A DNA stretch of 35,382 bases, from contig JBAYUL010000001.1 of NCBI GenBank assembly GCA_041675105.1, forward strand, positions 1 to 35,382, in the 5' to 3' direction. Both the position numbers and the translations under genes were made by a program. The notes beneath the pieces are model-generated. The model ran no database searches. It had not been told where the DNA came from and saw only the letters and a list, made by a program, of their open reading frames with translations. Source of the stretch: Minisyncoccota bacterium. GTDB lineage: Bacteria; Patescibacteriota; Minisyncoccia; Phycocordibacterales; UBA2100. Below, piece after piece: positions 6,700 through 23,467 of this stretch. Position 1 is the first letter of the stretch; each line of letters starts with the position of its first letter.

Positions 6700-6724
6700 A
6701 AACGCCTCTTTTAGAGGCGTTTTG
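6700..6724 (+). terminator. Rho-independent terminator
   Basis: AAACGCCTCT-ttt-AGAGGCGTTT perfect stem followed by T residues, 23 nt after the stop at 6677. Confidence 0.8.
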
Positions 6725-6820
6725 GCCGTGATACGCTGGTACGAACATGAAGTACCCCGGTACCACAACCTCGCAGGCTCGGTTGGCTACGGGGCAGGCG
6801 ACCGCAAGACCAAATGTAAT

Positions 6821-9800
6821 ATGAAATACGATCACAAGTCGATTGAAAAGAAGTGGCAAAAGTTCTGGAGTGAGAACAAGATATATACGACGCCGGATAG
6901 CGCTCCGGGAAAGGACAATTTTTATCTGCTGGTAGAGTTCCCATACCCGTCTGGCAACCTCCACGTCGGTCACTGGTACGCGTTCGCGGTACCCGATATC
7001 CTTGCACGTTATGAGAGGATGAGGGGCAAAAACGTGATGTATCCCATCGGCTTTGATGCGTTCGGTCTCCCCGCGGAAAATGCGGCCATCAAGAATAAGC
7101 TCAATCCGCGCGATTGGACGGAGAAAAATATCGCGTATATGAAAAAGCAAATTGAGTCGATGGGGACATCGTTCGATTGGTCGCGGGAAGTGTCTACCAT
7201 CGACCCGGCGTACTACAAGTGGACGCAATGGCTTTTTCTCCAGCTCTACAAAAAAGGCTTGGTGTATCAGAAGGAAACCGCGGTCAACTGGTGTCCCGTG
7301 GACAAGACGGTGCTCGCCAATGAGCAGGTGATCGACGGCAAGTGTGACCGCTGCGGGTCGGAGGTAGAACAGCGGCAAATGCTCCAGTGGAATATCAAGA
7401 TCACTGATTACGCCGATAGACTCATCGACGACCTTGCGGCACTCGATTGGCCGGAGCAGATAAAGGAATCGCAGCGCAATTGGATAGGCCGCAGCGAGGG
7501 TGCTGAGATCGATTTTGCGTTAGACCTTGGAGCAAACGATGGCTCGCGATTTCTACTTCTGCACGGTCGCCAAGGGTCGCCTGAAGCCAACTTCTTTCCG
7601 TGGCTGAAGTCCGAACTTGAGGCAAGGGGCTATGAAGTAGAAGTGCCGCTTTTACCCAACACCGCTGAACCAAACGACGAAGAACAAGCAGATTTTGTTG
7701 TGAAGAACTGCAGGATAGATGAGCGGACTGTGATCATTGGCCACTCATTCGGAGGGGTGGTCGCAATGCGCCTCTTGGAGCGGGGACACAAGGCGCGTCG
7801 CGTCGTGTTCGTCGCGACGCCATGCAGCGGCGAATTTCTTGATGGGAAGGAGCGTCCGTCGGTCAAAGCGGCGATACTGAAGGGATTCGATTTTTTGGCC
7901 GTGCGGAAGAACGCTGACACTATTCAGGTGTTACCGGATGAATCTGATCCTGTCGTGCCCTTCGCTGACGCGGAGCTGCTCGCAAAAGAGACGGGCGGTA
8001 TGCTGGTGCGCGGCAAGGGCACCGAATACCATTTCACCGCGAAAGTAGAGCCGGATGTGCTCATGATGTGCGTCCCAACGATACGCGTATTCACGACGCG
8101 GCCGGACACGCTCTTCGGGGCGACGTATCTGGTGCTCGCGCCTGAGCATCCGTGGGTAACACTCGCGCTCGCGCACAAGACCGTTCTGAAGAACAACGAC
8201 GAGGTTCGAGCGTACGTTGACCGGACGGAGAGGATGTCCGACATGGACCGGCAAACGACCAGAGAGAAGACAGGCGTCCAGCTCAAGGGCGTGGACGCTA
8301 TTAATCCCGCAAACGGCGAAAAGATCCCGCTTTATATTGCCGACTACGTACTCGGGCACTACGGCACCGGCGCCATCATGGCAGTACCCGCGCACGACGA
8401 GCGCGATTTCGAATTCGCGAAAAAGTTTGATCTTCCGATAAAGCCCGTCGTAGAACCACAATATGTCGGGAAAGGGGAGGGTGAACCCAAACAAGGCGAA
8501 GACTTTGTAAAACGTAACGCGGTATGCGTTGTTGTCCGAAATCCGAAGGACGACACGTATCTTTGCATAAGCTGGAAGACAATGCTCATGCACGGGCTTG
8601 TGACGGGAGGCATTGAAGATGGCGAAGATCTTGTGGAAGCGGCGAAACGTGAAGTGCGGGAGGAGACAGGGTATAAGAATTTACGACTTGTCTGGAATCC
8701 TGGCATTGCGAATCACACTTTGTTCTATCATCGGGTAAAAAAACAGAATCGGTGGGCGCGATTTACGAACATATTCTTTGAGCTCGAGAACGACGAGCGT
8801 GACCCTATTGATCCCAAAGAGGAAGCGTTGCATGAAGTACTGTGGCTCAAGAGAGACAAGCTGAAGGATTTCTTTTCGGTATATGAAGGACGCTTCATCC
8901 TTGACCTGCTTGATCATCCCGACTATGTCCACACGGATGCGGGCGTGCTCCACAATTCCGGTGAGTTCGACTGGATGGGCTCCGAGGAGGCCAAGAAAGT
9001 AATGACAGGACGATTCGGACGCAAGAAAACGACGTACAAGCTTCGCGACTGGATAGTCTCGCGTCAGCGCTACTGGGGTGTGCCGATACCGATGATCCAT
9101 TGCGAGAAATGCGGCAACCAGCCAGTGCCCGATGAGCAGCTACCCGTGCTTCTACCCGATGTTGAAGATTACCTACCGGAAGGGAGCGGGAAATCGCCGC
9201 TTGCCAAAGTGAAGGATTTCGTAGAGATACTGTGTCCGCGGTGCGGAGGTAGAGCGCAGCGCGAAACAGATACGCTCGATACATTCGTCGACTCATCGTG
9301 GTACTTTTTGCGTTATCTCGACGCGAACAACGCGGACGAATTTGCGGCGCGAGAGAAACAAGGGATGTGGATGCCGGTGAATATGTACAGCGGGGGAGCC
9401 GAGCATACAACGATGCATCTTTTGTATAGCCGCTTTTGGCACAAAGCGCTCTTCGACATCGGGCTTGTCGGTGATGCGGAGCCGTACGCCCATCGTGTGA
9501 ATCATGGTCTTGTTCTGGGGCCTGACGGACAAAAGATGAGCAAATCAAAGGGCAATGTGCTTGATCCGGACGAGGTGGTGGAGAGGCTCGGAGCGGACAC
9601 GGTACGCATGTACCTTGCCTTTATGGGCCCGTACACGGGTGGAGCCAGCTATCCCTGGAATCCCGACGGGGTCGTGGGAGTGCGACGATTTCTCGAACGT
9701 GTGGCGCGGACCGAAGAGTACGTCCAGAGCTCGCACGTCGACGAATTGGATATGATATTGAACAAGACCATTCAGAAAGTCGGGGACGATATTTCAGTCT

Positions 9801-10204
9801 TTAAATTCAACACGGCAATCAGTCAGCTGATGATTCTGATGAATGCTATCGAGAAGACAAAGAAACTGGGGACAGACCAATGGAAACTCTTGCTGCACAT
9901 TCTTGCTCCGTTCGCACCTCACCTTGCTGAAGAGTTGTGGCATGTACTCGGCGGAACGGCATCCATTCATCTGGAGTCGTGGCCGAAGTATGATCCTTCC
10001 AAAACAGTCGATGACGAGATCGTTTTGGCGGTGCAAGTGGACGGGAAGACGCGAGGTGAAGTGAGGGTGAAAGCAGATGCAGATAAAGCCACTATCGAAA
10101 CGGCTGCGCGCGAAGCGGTCGCATCCAGACTGGAAGGGAAGACCGTGACGAAAACGATCGTCGTGCCAAAGCGGCTCGTGAACTTCGTGCTTAGCGCCTC
10201 GTGA
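6821..10204 (+). CDS. leuS: Leucyl-tRNA synthetase, unusually long (1127 aa) with two nested extra domains
   Basis: 'MKYDHKSIEKKWQKFW' canonical N-terminus at ATG 6821; the ORF-track TTG 6722 extension has no homology-like content. Motifs seen: HIGH 'HVGH', 'NWIGRSEGAEIDF', CP1 'TTRPDTLFGATY' and 'AHDERDFEFAKKF', 'YKLRDWIVSRQRYWGVPIP', KMSKS 'KMSKSKGN'. Confidence 0.95.
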   Translation: MKYDHKSIEKKWQKFWSENKIYTTPDSAPGKDNFYLLVEFPYPSGNLHVGHWYAFAVPDILARYERMRGKNVMYPIGFDAFGLPAENAAIKNKLNPRDWTEKNIAYMKKQIESMGTSFDWSREVSTIDPAYYKWTQWLFLQLYKKGLVYQKETAVNWCPVDKTVLANEQVIDGKCDRCGSEVEQRQMLQWNIKITDYADRLIDDLAALDWPEQIKESQRNWIGRSEGAEIDFALDLGANDGSRFLLLHGRQGSPEANFFPWLKSELEARGYEVEVPLLPNTAEPNDEEQADFVVKNCRIDERTVIIGHSFGGVVAMRLLERGHKARRVVFVATPCSGEFLDGKERPSVKAAILKGFDFLAVRKNADTIQVLPDESDPVVPFADAELLAKETGGMLVRGKGTEYHFTAKVEPDVLMMCVPTIRVFTTRPDTLFGATYLVLAPEHPWVTLALAHKTVLKNNDEVRAYVDRTERMSDMDRQTTREKTGVQLKGVDAINPANGEKIPLYIADYVLGHYGTGAIMAVPAHDERDFEFAKKFDLPIKPVVEPQYVGKGEGEPKQGEDFVKRNAVCVVVRNPKDDTYLCISWKTMLMHGLVTGGIEDGEDLVEAAKREVREETGYKNLRLVWNPGIANHTLFYHRVKKQNRWARFTNIFFELENDERDPIDPKEEALHEVLWLKRDKLKDFFSVYEGRFILDLLDHPDYVHTDAGVLHNSGEFDWMGSEEAKKVMTGRFGRKKTTYKLRDWIVSRQRYWGVPIPMIHCEKCGNQPVPDEQLPVLLPDVEDYLPEGSGKSPLAKVKDFVEILCPRCGGRAQRETDTLDTFVDSSWYFLRYLDANNADEFAAREKQGMWMPVNMYSGGAEHTTMHLLYSRFWHKALFDIGLVGDAEPYAHRVNHGLVLGPDGQKMSKSKGNVLDPDEVVERLGADTVRMYLAFMGPYTGGASYPWNPDGVVGVRRFLERVARTEEYVQSSHVDELDMILNKTIQKVGDDISVFKFNTAISQLMILMNAIEKTKKLGTDQWKLLLHILAPFAPHLAEELWHVLGGTASIHLESWPKYDPSKTVDDEIVLAVQVDGKTRGEVRVKADADKATIETAAREAVASRLEGKTVTKTIVVPKRLVNFVLSAS
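7523..8077 (+). other. In-frame insertion in LeuRS: YdeN/RBBP9-type alpha/beta serine hydrolase domain (~185 aa)
   Basis: 'FLLLHGRQGSPEANFFPWLK', nucleophile elbow 'IIGHSFGG' (Ser codon 7745-7747), 'DESDPVVPF' and 'EYHF'. Lies between the LeuRS motifs 'GAEIDF' and 'IRVFTTRPDT'. Confidence 0.8.
8450..8935 (+). other. In-frame insertion in LeuRS: Nudix hydrolase domain (~150 aa)
   Basis: Perfect Nudix box G-x5-E-x7-REVxEExGY: 'GGIEDGEDLVEAAKREVREETGY' (8606-8674). Lies between the LeuRS motifs 'AHDERDFEFAKKFDLPIKPV' and 'GVLHNSGEFDWMGSEEAKK'. Confidence 0.85.
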
Positions 10205-18324: not shown

Positions 18325-18352
18325 ATGTCGCACAATATATCTTTTGCGACGT
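18325..18352. other. dif-like / tyrosine-recombinase core-type site (11-6-11): ATGTCGCACAA|TATATC|TTTTGCGACGT, left junction of the element
   Basis: The arms are inverted repeats (inner 9 nt match 8/9; 11 nt match 9/11) around a 6-bp spacer. The spacer plus right arm form the 15-bp direct repeat. Confidence 0.6.
18336..18350 (+). repeat. Direct repeat copy 1 (TATATCTTTTGCGAC)
   Basis: Identical 15-mer at 23128-23142. Confidence 0.9.
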
Positions 18353-18363
18353 ATAGCCATCTG

Positions 18364-18387
18364 CAAAAAGGGGTTGATTCTACCCCT
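18364..18387 (-). terminator. Rho-independent terminator at the end of the element's last gene
   Basis: Minus strand: AGGGGT-agaatca-ACCCCT followed by TTTTTG. It overlaps the stop codon at 18386-18388. Confidence 0.6.
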
Positions 18388-18808
18388 AAGCTCGAACCAG
18401 CTTGTCGTGCTGATAGCTACTAAGACCTACTGCTTGCGGTGCGGGACACAAATGCCCTCTCGCGTGGTGATACCGTAATAATCCCCTAAGCGATCGCAAT
18501 GCTCTGTCTTCTGCGTACTTAGTCGTCTCTTGCTCCTTCAGATACCGTTCAAAGGCTCTTAAATGGCGTATTTCGATCTCCCCCACATCTGAAATATCGG
18601 CAAACCGAGCAAACCTCGTCAGAATGGGTTTTTCCATTGGAGCCATCGTAGGAGCTGTCAGAACCTTATGACTAAGGTAATCCTGTATCTGCGATTCAAT
18701 TACGCGCTCTTTAAAGCGTCCTAACAGGCTAATTCGATTGATCATGTTCATTATGACTTGAGTCAAGGAGCTAAAGATTATTTTACATGAGAATTGAGCC
18801 GTCTGCAT
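18386..18808 (-). CDS. Stand-alone protein resembling the N-terminal SAM-like (core-binding) domain of tyrosine recombinases; no catalytic domain
   Basis: 'IEIRHLRAFERYLKEQETTKYAEDRALRSLRGLLRYHHARGHL' fits the Phage_integrase_N/SAM-like helix pattern. The ORF ends with its own terminator 36 nt from the element border, so there is no room for an RHRY catalytic domain. Confidence 0.5.
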   Translation of the reverse strand: MQTAQFSCKIIFSSLTQVIMNMINRISLLGRFKERVIESQIQDYLSHKVLTAPTMAPMEKPILTRFARFADISDVGEIEIRHLRAFERYLKEQETTKYAEDRALRSLRGLLRYHHARGHLCPAPQAVGLSSYQHDKLVRA

Positions 18809-18810
18809 AT

Positions 18811-19578
18811 CTATTCCTTTGACCCTTTAAACACACGGTGCCGGCAATTGCCCAGATACCGAGAGTAATACTGCTCGTCCGTCAGAACTTCCTCACCATT
18901 CAGCTCGTCTAAGAGAGACCAAAGTGATGACGTTCCTCGCGAAATGAATGGACGCAAGACATTCCTAGATGCCACATATGATTTCTGGTTTCTTAATCGG
19001 GGATCGGTGAAAGCTTTCGCCATATATTTTGCAAGGTAGTTGGCTATCTTGATATGCCCGTCAGTTTTTTTGTAGTAAACGAATCCCATACCCCATTTCA
19101 TTGCGATTGTTCGAGTAGTCCGTTCTTGTGATACCACCTCCTCGGGTAGCCCCCAGAACAAACTGTGAAAATGAACAGCTCCACGTTTTTGGAATTCAGG
19201 GACGGCAATGTACTTGAATGATTTGCCGTAGCTGTAGCGGAGAGCTTGGTTAAAAGCGCGGAGACGTTTGTATCCGTAAGAGAGATCGGTAATGATATCT
19301 TTGCAGGTAAGAGTAATGAGTACAGGAAGTTCAGATCCGACAAGGTTAGCTTCGACCAGTCTTCTAAAATCCATTTTTGCGCGTCGCGAATGATCGTGTC
19401 TTTTCCCCAACTTCCCTTTCGATACAGAATTGCCTCCATCAGCTCCCAAATCCACATTTGAAGCGTTAGTCTCACGTTTTGGTGATGGGCGTCTTCGTCG
19501 ATCCACCACCCTTGGTTCTCGTTGGTATTCATATATTTCTGTTTTATTCCCGTATTGAATTACTTTGTTGTAGCCCAT
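18811..19578 (-). CDS. HUH-superfamily rolling-circle replication initiator (two-tyrosine, phiX174 gpA-like)
   Basis: Motif 1 'VLITLT' (19320-19306), motif 2 HUH 'AVHFHSLFW' (HFH at 19173-19165), motif 3 'NYLAKYMAK' = YxxKY (19038-19024). Start set at ATG 19578, because the upstream part of the ORF-track call overlaps a terminator and a hairpin. Confidence 0.8.
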   Translation of the reverse strand: MGYNKVIQYGNKTEIYEYQREPRVVDRRRRPSPKRETNASNVDLGADGGNSVSKGKLGKRHDHSRRAKMDFRRLVEANLVGSELPVLITLTCKDIITDLSYGYKRLRAFNQALRYSYGKSFKYIAVPEFQKRGAVHFHSLFWGLPEEVVSQERTTRTIAMKWGMGFVYYKKTDGHIKIANYLAKYMAKAFTDPRLRNQKSYVASRNVLRPFISRGTSSLWSLLDELNGEEVLTDEQYYSRYLGNCRHRVFKGSKE

Positions 19579-19600
19579 TGAATTCTTAGCTATTTGTACT

Positions 19601-19676
19601 GAGTGGCGCGTATAGCAAGTCTGGACAGCCGGCCGCGGCGCTAAAGCGCCTGCGGCACGCCTGTCCGGCGCCACTC
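19601..19676. other. 76-nt GC-rich composite stem-loop upstream of rep: candidate double-strand origin / nick site
   Basis: Outer stem GAGTGGCGC/GCGCCACTC (19601-19609/19668-19676), middle stem GGACAG/CTGTCC (19623-19628/19661-19666), inner ~12-bp GC stem with TAAA loop. A 13-nt asymmetric internal loop reads AGACTTGCTATAC on the rep strand. Confidence 0.5.
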
Positions 19677-19686
19677 CCCTCTCTCT

Positions 19687-19715
19687 GTATAAAAATTCCC
19701 TGCATGACAGCAGGG
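19687..19715 (-). terminator. Rho-independent terminator after the wHTH gene
   Basis: Minus strand: CCCTGC-tgtcat-GCAGGG followed by AATTTTTATAC, ~35 nt after the stop at 19751. Confidence 0.65.
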
Positions 19716-19750
19716 TGCTACAGAACGAGAACCAAGTGTATGGGAACGTT

Positions 19751-20635
19751 TTAACTTTGTTTTGACTCGTCCGAATCTTCGCCAAAAACAAGGCGATATC
19801 CCACTTGAGCGACATTGTGGAGCACGTCGAGCTTCAGTTTCTCCTTGATGCCTTGAATGATCGGATACAGATCCATTCGATCTGTTTTCGTAGGTTCAGT
19901 CCGATTAGGGTAAGCTGCCCGTATAAGATCAGCGTGCGAAGCCTGCATATCAGGACTCTCACACAGGGCAAGTAGCACCTTAAACTCCTTTGATGAGGGC
20001 GTGAAAGTTCCTCGGACATCGCTGAGGACGAAGTCTCCTGTACGGCGGTTGAGGAGTAGAGGGCATTCTTTAGCCGGAGGCTCTTTGGGTGCTTCCATTT
20101 TGGGCAACTTCTCAACCTCTGCAAGGAGCATCAAATGAAACTGTTTTAGCCTATTCTCGAATGATTCACGATTCGCATATCGGCGGGCAAGCCGCTTTAG
20201 ATTCTCCCTGCCCCATTTTGTGGGTGATCTCTTTGCATATTCGGGGTTGATATTCTCGACGCCTTTCATCATGACAAGAGCTTCGGGGTATAAATCATAC
20301 TCAGGCTCGTTGATAGCGTTTTTATAGTCCTCAAGTGGGTCATACACCCATGCTTCAGTAAAACAACCGACGGCATAGAGACTAAAGCGCTCAAGTCGAT
20401 CTGTGCGTTCTGCCCTATCATCAGCCTCCTCGTCAGTTAGTTTGTGATCACGTTCCCATACGGCAATGTGCTTTTCTCGAAGTTCGTTTTCGCTCGCCTC
20501 ATAAAGCCCGTGCAAGACAGGGTCTTTAATTACAAGGTCAAAATAGTGATGTAGGTTTTGATAGAACCTCGAATTGTTGTCGCTCTCGAACACAGCATCG
20601 TAGCGGATTTTTAGGGACTCTTGCAGATTAATCAT
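19751..20635 (-). CDS. Protein with C-terminal OmpR/PhoB-type winged-helix DNA-binding domain; N-terminal ~190 aa unknown
   Basis: C-terminus 'FTPSSKEFKVLLALCESPDMQASHADLIRAAYP...TDRMDLYPIIQGIKEKLK...AQVGYRLVF' follows the Trans_reg_C pattern. There is no receiver domain. Confidence 0.6.
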   Translation of the reverse strand: MINLQESLKIRYDAVFESDNNSRFYQNLHHYFDLVIKDPVLHGLYEASENELREKHIAVWERDHKLTDEEADDRAERTDRLERFSLYAVGCFTEAWVYDPLEDYKNAINEPEYDLYPEALVMMKGVENINPEYAKRSPTKWGRENLKRLARRYANRESFENRLKQFHLMLLAEVEKLPKMEAPKEPPAKECPLLLNRRTGDFVLSDVRGTFTPSSKEFKVLLALCESPDMQASHADLIRAAYPNRTEPTKTDRMDLYPIIQGIKEKLKLDVLHNVAQVGYRLVFGEDSDESKQS

Positions 20636-20644
20636 ATAGGCCTT

Positions 20645-21991
20645 TTACGGCAGGTCCATTTGTCGATTTATTTCGTCAACCCACGCAGAGGCAAGCAGTT
20701 TAAGATTTGCCATATTGTCTGCACCTTGCTCAAGAAACCTTTCGAGATAATCCAATGCTTCTGAAGGATTTTGTAATTTTCGATAGTACAAAAAGCCAAT
20801 CCAAAAAAGCAGCTGAGGTCTTCGGTCGCCGTCAGCAATCATCTTTTTCGAGAAATTAATGCTGTCATTCGAAATGCGAGTATCTCCTTCAGAGGTGTGC
20901 CGTTCAAGACTCCTACAGACTCGTTGTGCATGGTCAAAGTCTTCATTCACCAGGAGCAAAAATGCTCTGTTAAATTTCCACGTGACGTCTCCGGTAGGCG
21001 CTGCTCGTTCCGCGATATCCGTTGTTTCTAGTGCGGCACTAGCGTCATTATCATATTTAAACTCGATTATAGAACGCAGAATAAGAGCGGAATAATTGCG
21101 CTGCGCGATTGTTAACGCCGCTCCCACTTCTTCTCGTGCCTCATCCAGCCTGCCTGCATTAAAGGCCGCGATTCCTTTAACAGCGTGGGCGTCACTAATA
21201 ACATTGTCCAATTTGGAATATATTGCTTGAACATTCGGTGCCAAGGGCTTAGGGAGGGCCGCAATTTCCTCTTTTAAGCGAGTATGTAGATTCAGCGTAG
21301 AGTCGGGTTTACCCGAGATAAGTGCGGCAACGCCAGTAATGTATCTGACTGTGTAATAAATCATATCTCCCGCTATTTCTGAGGCGTGGAACGACATATC
21401 TTCGGTAAACTGCAGACGCACTGGCAATGCTTCTCGGAAATCTCGCGAGAGTTTACTGCCGATGTTTATAGAAACTGGACGATGTGAGACGTAGCCTTCG
21501 AGATCAAGATAGGTGAAGGCTCCCCTATGGCGTGCAAAACCCCAAATCCATATATCGCCTCTAGTTTTTCTATTCCGCCTTGCGATATTCCCCCCGTTAA
21601 CAGTTCTAGCGAAATGTTCTGGCAGATCAATCACATGCGTTGAATCACTAATTCCGCCAGTAACTAGGTCGGCTCGGAGCTTCCTCATCAGGTCACTTTT
21701 CAATACTTCTGCCGACGGGTCATGTTCGGTTGAGATAGAGATTACTATATTCAACCTGTCTCTTTTCTTTCTCGGTAGCCGGAATCTGCCAAACAACCAG
21801 ATAGCAATGAATATAGACACGGTTGCAACGTCAAAATAGAACAAATACTGCTTCGGAAGAAAGGCGTTTAAGATCACGCTGTTTAAGGTTCCTAGAACAA
21901 GCATGATTAATACCACCCAGCCAATAAGCGCCTTGAAGCCATAAAACGGCCTCAACCAACTGACGATTTCCTCGGCAAACTTATCGGGCAT
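20645..21991 (-). CDS. Membrane protein: two N-terminal TM helices, unknown central domain, C-terminal TPR-like repeats
   Basis: Hydrophobic helices 'ALIGWVVLIMLVLGTLNSVILNAF' and 'VATVSIFIAIWLFG'. C-terminal helical repeats ('GIAAFNAGRLDEAREEVGAALTIAQ', 'FWIGFLYYRKLQNPSEALDYLERFLEQ'). The stop is 9 nt before the next gene's ATG. Confidence 0.6.
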   Translation of the reverse strand: MPDKFAEEIVSWLRPFYGFKALIGWVVLIMLVLGTLNSVILNAFLPKQYLFYFDVATVSIFIAIWLFGRFRLPRKKRDRLNIVISISTEHDPSAEVLKSDLMRKLRADLVTGGISDSTHVIDLPEHFARTVNGGNIARRNRKTRGDIWIWGFARHRGAFTYLDLEGYVSHRPVSINIGSKLSRDFREALPVRLQFTEDMSFHASEIAGDMIYYTVRYITGVAALISGKPDSTLNLHTRLKEEIAALPKPLAPNVQAIYSKLDNVISDAHAVKGIAAFNAGRLDEAREEVGAALTIAQRNYSALILRSIIEFKYDNDASAALETTDIAERAAPTGDVTWKFNRAFLLLVNEDFDHAQRVCRSLERHTSEGDTRISNDSINFSKKMIADGDRRPQLLFWIGFLYYRKLQNPSEALDYLERFLEQGADNMANLKLLASAWVDEINRQMDLP

Positions 21992-22049
21992 TGCCGAATC
22001 CTACTGCTCATGAAGGTTTGACACAACTACAGAACATGCCAGAAAACGC

Positions 22050-22082
22050 AAAACCACTCTTTCAGGTGGCCCTATGTCTAAC
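22050..22082 (-). repeat. 33-nt hairpin-containing repeat, copy A (terminator-like; between the cargo genes)
   Basis: AAAACCACTCTTTCAGGTGGCCCTATGTCTAAC, 29/33 identical to 23045-23077. On the minus strand the CCACCTgaaaGAGTGG hairpin is followed by TTTTGCGTTTT. Confidence 0.7.
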
Positions 22083-22113
22083 GCGCCTTTAAAACACGAA
22101 GAATAGTAGAATT

Positions 22114-23109
22114 TTAAGCCTGCTGAGCACGTGCCTCAAGCCAAAGAGGTAGAAGTGCATTCTTCTTTGCTTTTATATCCTTGAGCCAGTCCCTGAAATC
22201 CTTACGGTGCTCCTCTTTCAAAATATGTGCATCCACGAAGTCTAAGAAGTACGCCGTAGTGCCTAGGCCTAAGCTGGCCAGCCAAAAACGCTCACGACCC
22301 ATACCGTGTTTCAAATAAGGATTTCCATGCACGATCTCGGAAACGTAAGAATAAATTTCATATTGCTTTTTTGCGCCAAACACCGTCGCTGCTCTTTTCG
22401 AAAACGACGTCATTTTCTCTTCTGTTAGTACCTCCCTCCAGGGCGGAATGAGGAGTTTTCGATCTCGCAGCCAATAAAAATCAAACTCCGAATGCTTCCT
22501 GGGGTAATCTGGCATCTCTCTGACTAGCAGGGACTCGTTTAAGGCTAAAAGTACCTCGAAACCTCTTATATCGGGAACTAAATGAAAAGTCCGTAGCTGA
22601 TAGGTCAAAATGATCAATGCCCTCCGGTCCTCGCTCATTATTGAAGTGTCGTGGACATAGAGATTTCGAGCATAAATGTCCATCAACGCTCTGAGAGTCG
22701 ATAGTCTAAAGAATGATTTATCATCTTCAAGACGTAAGAACTCATCTGCAATAAAACTCAAATACTGGGAATAAACTTCTAGAGATTTAACACGAAACTG
22801 ATTGAAAAGTATCGCAACAGGATCATCTCTCTGATCAGGATGCTGCGCGTGTTCGTGGATTTGTTTTGCTCTCGCATCGAGCATGATAACGCCGCTCCGC
22901 ATAGACGCCGCATAGCCCTCAAAAACTGAGTCTTCCTCCCTAACCATGATCTCATTATACATATATGCGACTAACCGGTTCCTAAAATAAATCACACCAA
23001 ATTTCGTCCCGTTGTCGTCCCACATGGGGAATATGCTTAAGCATAAAACCACCCTTTCGGGTGGCCCTATGTTTAGCTCCTTGAAGGCTTTTAAGTGTAT
23101 TTTCGTCAT
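22114..23109 (-). CDS. Hypothetical protein (331 aa as called; true start may be ATG 23025)
   Basis: Long AT-rich ORF with no TM segment and no motif I can assign. Codons 10-21 are encoded by repeat copy B, which raises doubt about the 5' end. Confidence 0.6.
   Translation of the reverse strand: MTKIHLKAFKELNIGPPERVVLCLSIFPMWDDNGTKFGVIYFRNRLVAYMYNEIMVREEDSVFEGYAASMRSGVIMLDARAKQIHEHAQHPDQRDDPVAILFNQFRVKSLEVYSQYLSFIADEFLRLEDDKSFFRLSTLRALMDIYARNLYVHDTSIMSEDRRALIILTYQLRTFHLVPDIRGFEVLLALNESLLVREMPDYPRKHSEFDFYWLRDRKLLIPPWREVLTEEKMTSFSKRAATVFGAKKQYEIYSYVSEIVHGNPYLKHGMGRERFWLASLGLGTTAYFLDFVDAHILKEEHRKDFRDWLKDIKAKKNALLPLWLEARAQQA
23045..23077 (-). repeat. 33-nt hairpin-containing repeat, copy B
   Basis: AAAACCACCCTTTCGGGTGGCCCTATGTTTAGC. 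On the minus strand: CCACCC-gaaa-GGGTGG (6-bp stem, GAAA loop) followed by TTTTAT. Confidence 0.7.
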
Positions 23110-23116
23110 CCCCTAT

Positions 23117-23144
23117 CATTCTCGTTCTATATCTTTTGCGACAC
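23117..23144. other. Hybrid (half) core site at the right junction: CATTCTCGTTC|TATATC|TTTTGCGACAC
   Basis: The spacer and right arm are identical to the left-junction site. The left arm is unrelated to ATGTCGCACAA. Confidence 0.55.
23128..23142 (+). repeat. Direct repeat copy 2 (TATATCTTTTGCGAC)
   Basis: Identical 15-mer at 18336-18350. Confidence 0.9.
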
Positions 23145-23329
23145 GTAGGCCTAGGCACATCGGCCTGATATAGTTTACACATCCGGCTGTGAGTTGCCTG
23201 TCCGGATACTGGCCGCTGTAGGCCAGTGAGTGTTGAGCCATGTTTGTCTTGAATGTCGGATCCCGCGTTGGGATTCGATCCCCTAGACTTGCCCCATACA
23301 CCGGTCGTCGGTCGCGGGGCTTTTTCTTT
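23143..23329 (+). ncRNA. Candidate structured RNA or long structured 3' UTR ending in a terminator (family unknown)
   Basis: No convincing ORF. Adjacent perfect hairpins ATCCGG-N15-CCGGAT (23181-23207) and ACTGGCC-gctgta-GGCCAGT (23208-23227), then GGATCCC/GGGATTC pairing and a terminator with a T-run on the plus strand only. Confidence 0.25.
23291..23329 (+). terminator. Rho-independent terminator candidate (plus strand)
   Basis: GCCCC...ACCG-gtcgt-CGGT...GGGGC composite hairpin followed by TTTTTCTTT. Confidence 0.5.
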
Positions 23330-23467
23330 GCTATGCTATGAGGAGCTGGTGCCGGACACTGCGTCCCGCGCCAGCAGTACAGCGGCTGTCGCTGTTGCCC
23401 CTATACTTTTTCAATACAATCTTCGATTGTCACGAAAAAGTCCCTAGGGGCTGTTTCTATGGCGGTC

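Follow-up and report, generated by a model that had tools for sequence, protein, structure and literature searches.

In Vibrio, Neisseria and other bacteria, the dif site is a hot spot for mobile elements that have no integrase (PMC5357621). The satellite phage TLCphi of Vibrio cholerae, ~4.7-5 kb long, encodes a rolling-circle Rep and integrates at dif with neither an integrase nor virion morphogenesis genes; its attP consists of one arm and the central region of dif next to a divergent second arm, and a small element-encoded factor, XafT, acts on the host recombinase (PMC5357621, PMC6744903, PMC9226527). CTXphi and VGJphi are inovirus-type replicons with an HUH Rep that enter dif through the host Xer system (PMC4246890, PMC5357621), and the gonococcal genetic island (GGI) has a functional difA and a degenerate difGGI, in which a good arm and the central region are joined to a divergent other arm (PMC5357621). 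In the Legionellales, the dif mimic on the mobile element LME-1 revealed an unrecognized dif that is served by a single recombinase, XerL (PMC9765430), and in the xerS-difSL, xerH-difH and some xerA-dif systems the recombinase gene adjoins a near-symmetric site (PMC5357621). For Patescibacteria (the candidate phyla radiation), we found no description in the searchable literature of a dif site, an Xer system or an integrative mobile element that exploits Xer (IMEX). Here we analyze a 4.8-kb element in a 35,382-nucleotide stretch of a Minisyncoccota genome (the whole stretch is the window, ~35 kb, and all coordinates are window positions). The element encodes an HUH Rep and a 140-aa SAM-like protein, and we consider it likely to be an IMEX-type integrated rolling-circle replicon that lies at the chromosomal dif and uses a host Xer recombinase.

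Borders of the element and its empty site

The 15-mer TATATCTTTTGCGAC occurs as two exact copies in the window, with no further copies at up to 2 mismatches; two hits were obtained in 0 of 100 shuffles. Together with the sequences in which they are embedded, these copies define the borders of the element:

18325..18352, plus strand: attL, a full 28-bp dif-type site, ATGTCGCACAA TATATC TTTTGCGACGT
18336..18350, plus strand: left 15-bp direct repeat, comprising the spacer and 9 nt of the right arm
18360..18373, plus strand: TCTGCAAAAAGGGG, an arm-like motif located between attL and the SAM-like gene
23117..23144, plus strand: attR, a one-armed pseudo-dif, CATTCTCGTTC TATATC TTTTGCGACAC
23128..23142, plus strand: right 15-bp direct repeat

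The left copy lies within an 11-6-11 palindrome whose arms are complementary at 9/11 positions (8/9 for the inner nine bases). The right copy retains the spacer and one arm, and its left arm, CATTCTCGTTC, is unrelated to the palindrome. Five open reading frames (ORFs), all on the minus strand, occupy the interval between the repeats, where the G+C content is 44-49% as opposed to 53-57% on either side. An earlier note on this stretch, made from its letters alone, had described the perfect repeat, the palindrome around its left copy, the single arm at its right copy and the five co-oriented, AT-richer genes, and our analysis reproduced each of these observations.

The 24-bp core of attL has the same letters as a site found in at least 119 Patescibacteria assemblies (described below), and its trailing GTATAG is the same in the empty sites of two relatives (L004 and L007). 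The left arm of attL is host-derived and its right arm element-derived, whereas at attR the degenerate arm comes from the element and the right arm from the host; the host flank to the right of attR, ACGTAGGCC, matches a further relative, L005. The 15-bp repeat is the stretch of identity between attP and attB, within which the crossover must lie. The reconstructed attP, CATTCTCGTTC TATATC TTTTGCGACGT, has the spacer and the right arm in common with dif.

Relatives of the flanking 222-aa protein are found in Kaiserbacteria and other Patescibacteria, and they provide examples of the unoccupied locus. Three of them (L004, L007 and L008, with ~70% flank-protein identity) carry a single ACGTCGCACAATATATCTTTTGCGACGTATAG without the element, located in the same syntenic gap between an RNase T-like gene and the 222-aa gene. 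In the fourth, L005, the site reads ...CGCACAATATATCTTTTGCGACACGTAGGCCCAGGCA (...GCGACACGTAGGCC), which is the left arm of the window joined to its right flank, that is, the reconstructed attB. For the window, the empty (pre-insertion) junction would be ...CGCACAATATATCTTTTGCGACACGTAGG... The site rebuilt by joining the outer flanks thus occurs in L005, and the element-free site expected in related genomes is present at the syntenic position in all four.

A tRNA, tmRNA or other RNA gene was rejected as the target: ARAGORN reported no tRNA or tmRNA gene, and Rfam searches of both junctions returned nothing at the gathering level or at E up to 10, apart from an mmgR-like hit in the right flank. 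This mmgR/suhB hit scored 24.8 bits, below the gathering score of 41, and falls on a terminator.

The target site as a candidate dif of Patescibacteria

We surveyed the target using the exact 24-mer GTCGCACAATATATCTTTTGCGAC; the counts below are among the matches listed (loci L009-L127). One copy is present in each of at least 119 contigs from at least 119 assemblies, all of them Patescibacteria, and never are there two on one contig, including in two complete chromosomes. The lineages comprise, within Paceibacteria, Kaiser-, Nomura-, Yonath-, Azam-, Adler-, Vogel- and Moranbacteria, as well as Minisyncoccia and records named Saccharimonadia. Occurrence once per contig across different species argues against a dispersed repeat, which the earlier note had named as an outcome that would undo its proposal. 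The sequences flanking the 24-mer are unconserved except for an R-Y preference on each side, which completes the 11-6-11 layout and gives the consensus RYGTCGCACAA TATATC TTTTGCGACRY (spaces set off the spacer). This is the layout of a dif site, which spans ~28 bp with two 11-bp inverted arms around an asymmetric center of 6-8 bp, and like dif the site is conserved across species and, among the matches listed, occurs as a single copy.

The genomic context of the site points in the same direction. It is intergenic in 90/96 loci, and the nearest genes point at it in 60/86. With the loci oriented by the asymmetric core, the GC skew over 85 loci is +0.072 to the left of the site and -0.040 to the right (p = 2e-12), and 93% of coding bases lie on the plus strand on the left while 74% lie on the minus strand on the right. 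Gene orientation in the window also converges on the site. The suggestion that the reconstructed site is the chromosomal dif is supported by its single copy, conservation, intergenic position and gene convergence, and we consider the conserved site to be very probably the dif of Patescibacteria.

A variant of the site alters both arms symmetrically (TTCGCA...TGCGAA). The proteobacterial XerC arm is TTCGCATAA, from which the variant arm, TTCGCACAA, differs by one base. Because the right arm mirrors the left and is not XerD-like, a single recombinase is suggested; from the near-symmetry of its arms, the site is probably served by one Xer-type tyrosine recombinase.

Several other elements abut the same site. 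The closest in organization is on a 5.2-kb contig, L128, which encodes a Rep 77% identical to that of the window element, followed by an ORF of 140 aa. There is a full variant site, CTTCGCACAATATATCTTTTGCGAAG, 35 nt past this ORF, and the far end of the contig has a one-armed copy, AATTCTTGCCC TATATC TTTTGCGAAGT. The cargo differs from that of the window element and is DndB/DpdB-like. Judged by its sequence, L128 is a second, independent element of the same layout, and its Rep and 140-aa module between full and one-armed sites, with other cargo, lend further weight to the IMEX reading. The attP regions of the two elements can be aligned; among the features common to both are the degenerate arm (ATTCTYG), a hairpin and a CTRCAAAARG motif that resembles an arm. 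The latter corresponds to the motif at 18360-18373, kept as CCTTTTGYAG (gene strand) in L128 and L138, which may be an accessory binding site.

The site has other occupants as well. On the contig L146, a Zot-like ATPase (phrog_197, 5e-11) lies beside the exact site, indicating an inovirus-like prophage. A 2.56-kb AT-richer cassette (L068:1-2600), encoding a DUF3800 protein and a secreted coiled-coil protein, is bordered by a one-armed ACGTCGCACAA TATATC TTATCGTACAC and a full site, with the contig starting exactly at the first copy. In L151 (1572-7700), two tandem cassettes, one with AbiEii, lie between the recombinase gene described below and a full site; they encode no integrase, Rep or SAM-like protein, and each starts at GTCGCACAATAGAAACTTGCACG, which has a good left arm and another spacer (TAGAAA). 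These cassettes are reminiscent of IMEXs of the CTX/VGJ type, whose attP has a mismatched spacer, or of the pdif modules found in Acinetobacter. Since several integrase-less elements abut it, the site is a hot spot, as dif is elsewhere. One further candidate for a second IMEX, L103, was rejected: its extra half-site lies inside host genes and is a chance match.

L146 and another IMG/VR contig, L148, carry the exact site ~270 bp from the contig end. They have a common left flank and differ to the right of the site, and the flank of L146 is identical to that of a Minisyncoccia genome (L038).

A candidate for the recombinase is encoded beside the site in one lineage. On the IMG/VR contig L145, which carries the exact site, the gene for a tyrosine recombinase of 310 aa (PF00589 at 1e-22, and SAM_4) is located at a distance of 460 bp, and an E. 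coli XerD query detected the protein at 6e-10. In Taylorbacteria contigs, the chromosomal gene for a 310-aa tyrosine recombinase is ~455 bp from the site; the cluster has 21 members at 90% identity, named tyrosine recombinase or XerD, from Candidatus Taylorbacteria. In L149 and L150 this gene sits between an S49 peptidase gene and the dif-type site, and on the far side of the site is the block M23 peptidase-gltX-murG-ftsW-scpBA, as to the right of the window site. From gene order, this arrangement resembles a chromosomal xer-dif module such as those described for the XerS, XerH and certain XerA systems (PMC5357621). A recombinase gene beside the site as a general rule was dropped, as none was found in the 8-kb pieces around the listed loci although the XerD query detects that of L145.

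A tight palindrome with two dif-type arms, TTTTGCGACACAATGTCGCAAA, is present inside the coding sequence of the 310-aa recombinase (L149:2201, L150:1935 and, on the minus strand, L151:643). It could be an autoregulatory binding site, or a coincidence.

The same gene raises an alternative in which the enzyme is not the host's: a helper element would encode a dif-specific tyrosine integrase that mobilizes the window element in trans, with the SAM-like protein as a relic or adaptor and the site still a dif or a favored att. L145 is listed as viral in IMG/VR, the SAM-like family resembles the N-terminal domain of its recombinase, and the window element, without morphogenesis genes, is satellite-like, with Rep relatives in Zot-encoding circular genomes. 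Nevertheless, in L149 and L150 the recombinase gene lies among ordinary chromosomal genes, the protein is at least 90% identical on many contigs of one lineage and looks chromosomal, and the window element, L128, L146 and the cassettes all lack an accompanying integrase of this type. We regard a helper integrase as unlikely.

A second alternative, which we find similarly improbable, is that the conserved 24-28-mer is not dif but a structured RNA or a bidirectional terminator hairpin that is used as an att site, as tRNA genes are. The site can form a hairpin and lies between convergent genes in a conserved syntenic block. At some loci the palindrome extends outward: the variable 10-nt flanks are complementary at 7/10 positions or more in 14/116 sites (shuffled mean, 3.5), as in ATACCATAGC[site]GCTATGGTAT, and flank positions 3-8 covary above shuffled controls. 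These extended flanks may be bidirectional terminator stems around the site. For the site itself, however, the Rfam and tRNA/tmRNA searches gave no match at E up to 10, conservation ends sharply at the 28-bp edge in most genomes, mismatches of the G.U and C.A types show no strand asymmetry, and no T-run follows the stem. The 11-6-11 layout with an asymmetric spacer and a crossover in spacer plus arm instead fits a tyrosine-recombinase core site, as do the adjoining recombinase gene in one lineage and the repeated use of the site by integrase-less elements.

The Rep, the stand-alone core-binding protein and the cargo

Apart from the sites at its borders, the element contains the following features:

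18386..18808, minus strand: stand-alone SAM-like core-binding protein, 140 aa, with its stop codon 33 nt from attL
18811..19578, minus strand: HUH rolling-circle Rep, ~255 aa (PF23343, phrog_3419 and motifs)
19751..20635, minus strand: 294-aa cargo protein, weakly similar at its C-terminus to a winged-helix family (Trans_reg_C; below the Pfam cut-off)
20645..21991, minus strand: 448-aa cargo protein with an N-terminal hydrophobic segment followed by TPR repeats
22050..22080, minus strand: first copy of a 31-nt repeat, GGCCACCTGAAAGAGTGGTTTT, downstream of the 331-aa gene
22114..23109, minus strand: 331-aa cargo protein, family undetected
23045..23075, minus strand: second copy of the 31-nt repeat, GGCCACCCGAAAGGGTGGTTTT, near attR

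The HUH Rep reported in the earlier note is well supported. Its sequence matches PF23343 (REP_ORF2-G2P; 1.3e-16, with a score of 61 bits against a cut-off of 27.8) and phrog_3419 (1.3e-24), and it has a weak similarity to RepSA. The motifs LITLT, HFHSLF and YLAKYMAK are kept in 15 aligned homologues (family motifs LxTLT, GAVHFHxLFWGL and YLxKYMxKAF), corresponding to motifs I (xLTLT), II (HUH) and III (YxxxY) of HUH Reps. As the homologues (n = 677) are ~255 aa long, the real Rep gene is 18811-19578, and a longer ORF extending to 19815 is probably unused.

No recombinase catalytic domain was found in the five ORFs using Pfam, PHROGs and NCBIfam, which agrees with the reported lack of a complete integrase. 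A split integrase of the SSV type was also rejected, as the 140-aa ORF stops in element DNA and the 331-aa ORF has no similarity to recombinases. Because the ORFs have no match to Zot or coat genes, which an inovirus would encode, the element is a derivative of the satellite or plasmid type, not a filamentous phage.

Relatives of the Rep occur in other kinds of replicon. Those 41-46% identical to it are encoded by ~5-kb circular genomes with 121-123-nt terminal overlaps and a Zot gene, which are inovirus-like (L139 and L140 have Zot matches) and carry no dif-like sequence. In relatives ~55% identical, a large serine recombinase of ~500 aa takes exactly the position of the SAM-like protein, and there are no dif half-sites. 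These latter relatives (L129-L133) head 8-10-kb integrated elements in which the serine recombinase directly follows Rep; the cargo is of defense type (SMC/AAA_15 ATPase, AbiEii), and the elements are inserted beside housekeeping genes, away from dif-type sites.

These relatives also bear on the possibility that the replicon was inserted by its own HUH Rep, which would nick and join DNA at an extruded palindrome, as has been proposed for some single-stranded DNA replicons. The element does encode a two-tyrosine HUH Rep, and a hairpin with a loop of 6 nt can form at the target. Yet close Reps are paired with a large serine recombinase, so that Rep is not the integrase of the family, and its circular relatives have no dif-like sequence. 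In addition, the junctions reflect a reciprocal exchange of the tyrosine-recombinase type that duplicated the spacer and one arm, and elements without this Rep (L146, L068 and L151) occupy the same site. Together, these observations make Rep-mediated insertion very unlikely.

The 140-aa protein had been described as a SAM-like N-terminal recombinase fragment. The SAM-like assignment holds for its family and fold, whereas a conserved stand-alone protein, not a fragment, is what the comparisons reveal. The window protein alone matches Phage_int_SAM_4 at only E = 0.12. A profile-free search of 1.8 billion representatives identified 24 relatives, nearly all of 100-180 aa, of which 9 match Phage_int_SAM_4 (best 2e-6) and 4 match SAM_1, with hits to Phage_int_SAM_5 as well. 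In Foldseek, the top hits of an AlphaFold model (pLDDT 87) were almost exclusively core-binding domains from the N-termini of recombinases: those of XerA and Cre, of the integron integrase IntI and of phage integrases. The E-values of these hits were weak, with probabilities up to 1.0. The protein therefore combines the family profile match and the four-to-five-helix fold of a core-binding domain. Moreover, the family profile has a match in the N-terminal part of the recombinase encoded next to the site in Taylorbacteria (hidden Markov model, 2e-10; hhalign, 91%).

The C-terminal R-K-H-R-H/W-Y domain of tyrosine recombinases is missing from the 140-aa protein. It ends after the core-binding domain, 33 nt from the site, and its homologues have 100-180 aa, so it is not a recombinase. 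Its gene ends 22-49 nt from a dif-type site in the window, L128, L138 and L134, which are all the close relatives with enough sequence. Between the window element and L128, the ratio of nonsynonymous to synonymous substitution rates (dN/dS) is 0.12 for this protein, which is under purifying selection, and 0.15 for Rep; on the conserved length and the low ratio, a truncated integrase was rejected. We find it hardest of all to credit that the element is a decayed and immobile island in which the integrase lost its catalytic domain and the 140-aa ORF is a dead remnant: the ORF does occupy the usual place of an integrase next to att and has the N-terminal domain type only, but a length of 120-140 aa recurs in independent elements, its dN/dS is as low as that of Rep, the short distance from stop codon to site leaves no room for remnants of a catalytic domain, and both att copies are intact. 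We conclude that the SAM-like protein, a core-binding domain carried by the element, is functional and travels together with an attP that mimics dif.

The family has a few distant members. One, with 29% identity, is on a double-stranded DNA-phage-like contig (L135/L136; for P0250, a contig of 9.3 kb). It has a holin/CHAP lysis module on one side and ERF/YqaJ genes on the other, the usual integrase place, with a half-site, TTCGCACAATATATG, ~320 nt downstream. Another, P0244 (3237 aa), has 22 matched SAM-like stretches; it could be a giant repeat protein or else an artefact of assembly or annotation. A scan of metagenome contigs with the family found one short locus; the broad family alignment is too divergent for pattern searches.

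The two copies of the 31-nt repeat are 90% identical. The second (23045-23075) folds as a stable terminator-like hairpin (z-score -3.0), and a similar hairpin is found at the equivalent place in L128. The first (22050-22080) folds no better than shuffled sequences, and a hairpin or terminator role for it rests on its identity to the second. In the circular form, the second copy would fall just downstream of Rep, the SAM-like gene and attP. The hairpin repeat could be a terminator or part of a replication origin. Searches of the three cargo proteins against defense and function libraries gave no convincing match.

Two further observations concern the neighborhood of the element. Between attR and the 222-aa gene (23165-23335, plus strand) are two small hairpins, TCCGGCTG.GAGTTGCCTGTCCGGA and CTGGCCGCTGTAGGCCAG, in which compensatory changes are seen relative to L007 and L005. 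A terminator-like GCCCC...GGGGCTTTTT comes after them. The idea that a conserved RNA is encoded upstream of this gene was dropped, because a 13-locus alignment was too poor beyond the closest relatives. Elsewhere in the window, the leucyl-tRNA synthetase gene (6722-10204, plus strand; ~1160 aa) has precomputed Pfam hits to Ser_hydrolase/Abhydrolase and NUDIX domains between its synthetase domains, an unusual set of inserts.

Proposed mechanism and comparison with known systems

In the mechanism that we propose, the element would be a 4.8-kb circular rolling-circle replicon, with a Rep of the inovirus/plectrovirus G2P-ORF2 family and no morphogenesis genes, that integrates by site-specific recombination. 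The one-armed attP, CATTCTCGTTC TATATC TTTTGCGACGT, would be recombined with the host site, ATGTCGCACAA TATATC TTTTGCGACAC. Since the element has no catalytic domain, we expect the strands to be exchanged by a host tyrosine recombinase, at the edges of the common TATATC spacer, and we infer that the host Xer probably catalyzes integration. This would restore an intact dif at attL and leave a one-armed pseudo-dif at attR; because the intact dif is regenerated on the left, dimer resolution would be preserved. The SAM-like protein, encoded 33 nt from attP, most likely aids the assembly or activation of the host recombinase at the defective attP, or else sets the direction of the reaction.

Three features expected of an IMEX are present: the element lies between the probable dif and a dif-like copy (attL full, attR one-armed, with empty sites in relatives), its attP mimics dif in the spacer and right arm, and it has no site-specific recombinase of its own. 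The earlier proposal of an IMEX-type rolling-circle replicon is thus upheld by the borders, the empty sites, the single-copy target and the lack of an integrase.

Several observations weigh against this interpretation. Neither a circular form nor an excision junction was seen. The window contains no tyrosine recombinase gene, and searches of 8-kb pieces at the at least 119 sites using the SAM-like hidden Markov model and an E. coli XerD query found none, so that the enzyme is identified only by adjacency in one lineage. GC skew and gene orientation converge on the site over the 85 listed loci, but in the window the skew keeps its sign across the site. Half of the loci have a common synteny, with M23 peptidase, gltX and murG conserved to the right and L27, L9 and an S41 peptidase to the left; with synteny conserved around the site, the 85 loci are not independent, and the skew signal is inseparable from coding-strand bias. 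In the two complete genomes, the site is at 68% and 78% of the deposited coordinates (near 395.8 kb of 578.8 kb in CP174360.1 and near 771.7 kb of 994.8 kb in CP060229.1). Finally, a protein-binding site has no need of the extended palindromic flanks.

More tentatively, these results may describe a wider system, in which a phylum-wide dif is served by one Xer and elements hijack that Xer by means of a stand-alone core-binding-domain protein encoded beside a one-armed attP. The DNA-binding half, which the defective arm is unable to recruit, would then come in trans from this protein, or the protein would activate or steer Xer in another way. As part of the same tentative picture, the SAM-like module could be portable, occurring in rolling-circle satellites and apparently in a double-stranded DNA phage (L135), and interchangeable with a serine recombinase. 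If the protein acts in this way, it would be a third known way of subverting Xer, the other two being the single-strand exchange used by CTXphi and activation by XafT in TLCphi.

The kind of element described here is known; what is new is the phylum, the dif sequence and the stand-alone core-binding-domain module. With one exact dif 24-mer common to lineages named from Kaiserbacteria to Saccharimonadia, the terminus would be marked in hundreds of genomes that are fragmented, and genome curation would be helped. The site would also be a universal, neutral integration target with a natural 4.8-kb replicon, which is useful where genetics has barely begun. Furthermore, the cargo at the site (DndB/DpdB-like, AbiEii and unknown proteins) suggests that dif is a hot spot of defense-gene traffic in these minimal genomes.

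Among described systems, integrative rolling-circle replicons of the pSAM2 type, with RepSA and their own integrase, resemble the window element in the weak RepSA similarity of its Rep and in having Rep relatives with their own recombinase. The integrase is of the tyrosine type in pSAM2 and the recombinase of the Rep relatives is a large serine enzyme, and the window element has neither. The xerS, xerH and xerA modules have their counterpart in the L149 and L150 Taylorbacteria contigs, whereas most of the listed Patescibacteria loci have no recombinase within ~4 kb of the site; the spacer here is 6 bp, as in classical dif. Like the GGI, the window element is flanked by a full and a one-armed site, but the GGI is 57 kb long and has a type IV secretion system, with no rolling-circle Rep or SAM-like factor.

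The likeness to CTXphi and VGJphi lies in the Zot prophage that abuts the site in L146 and in the Rep relatives of Zot-encoding circular genomes. The window element differs in having no Zot or coat genes and in an attP that keeps the full dif spacer without mismatch; the L151 cassettes, with the spacer TAGAAA, are closer to the CTX/VGJ situation. LME-1 follows the same logic as the window element, though XerL and dif were genetically tested in Legionella, whereas our evidence is computational and the recombinase a candidate. Compared with TLCphi, the host belongs to another phylum, both arms of dif are XerC-like and nearly symmetric, a stand-alone core-binding domain takes the place of the DUF3653 protein XafT as the candidate factor, and the Rep is of the G2P/ORF2 type. 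Even so, in its size, its Rep, its lack of an integrase, its one-armed attP and its small candidate factor, the window element has its closest analogue in TLCphi.

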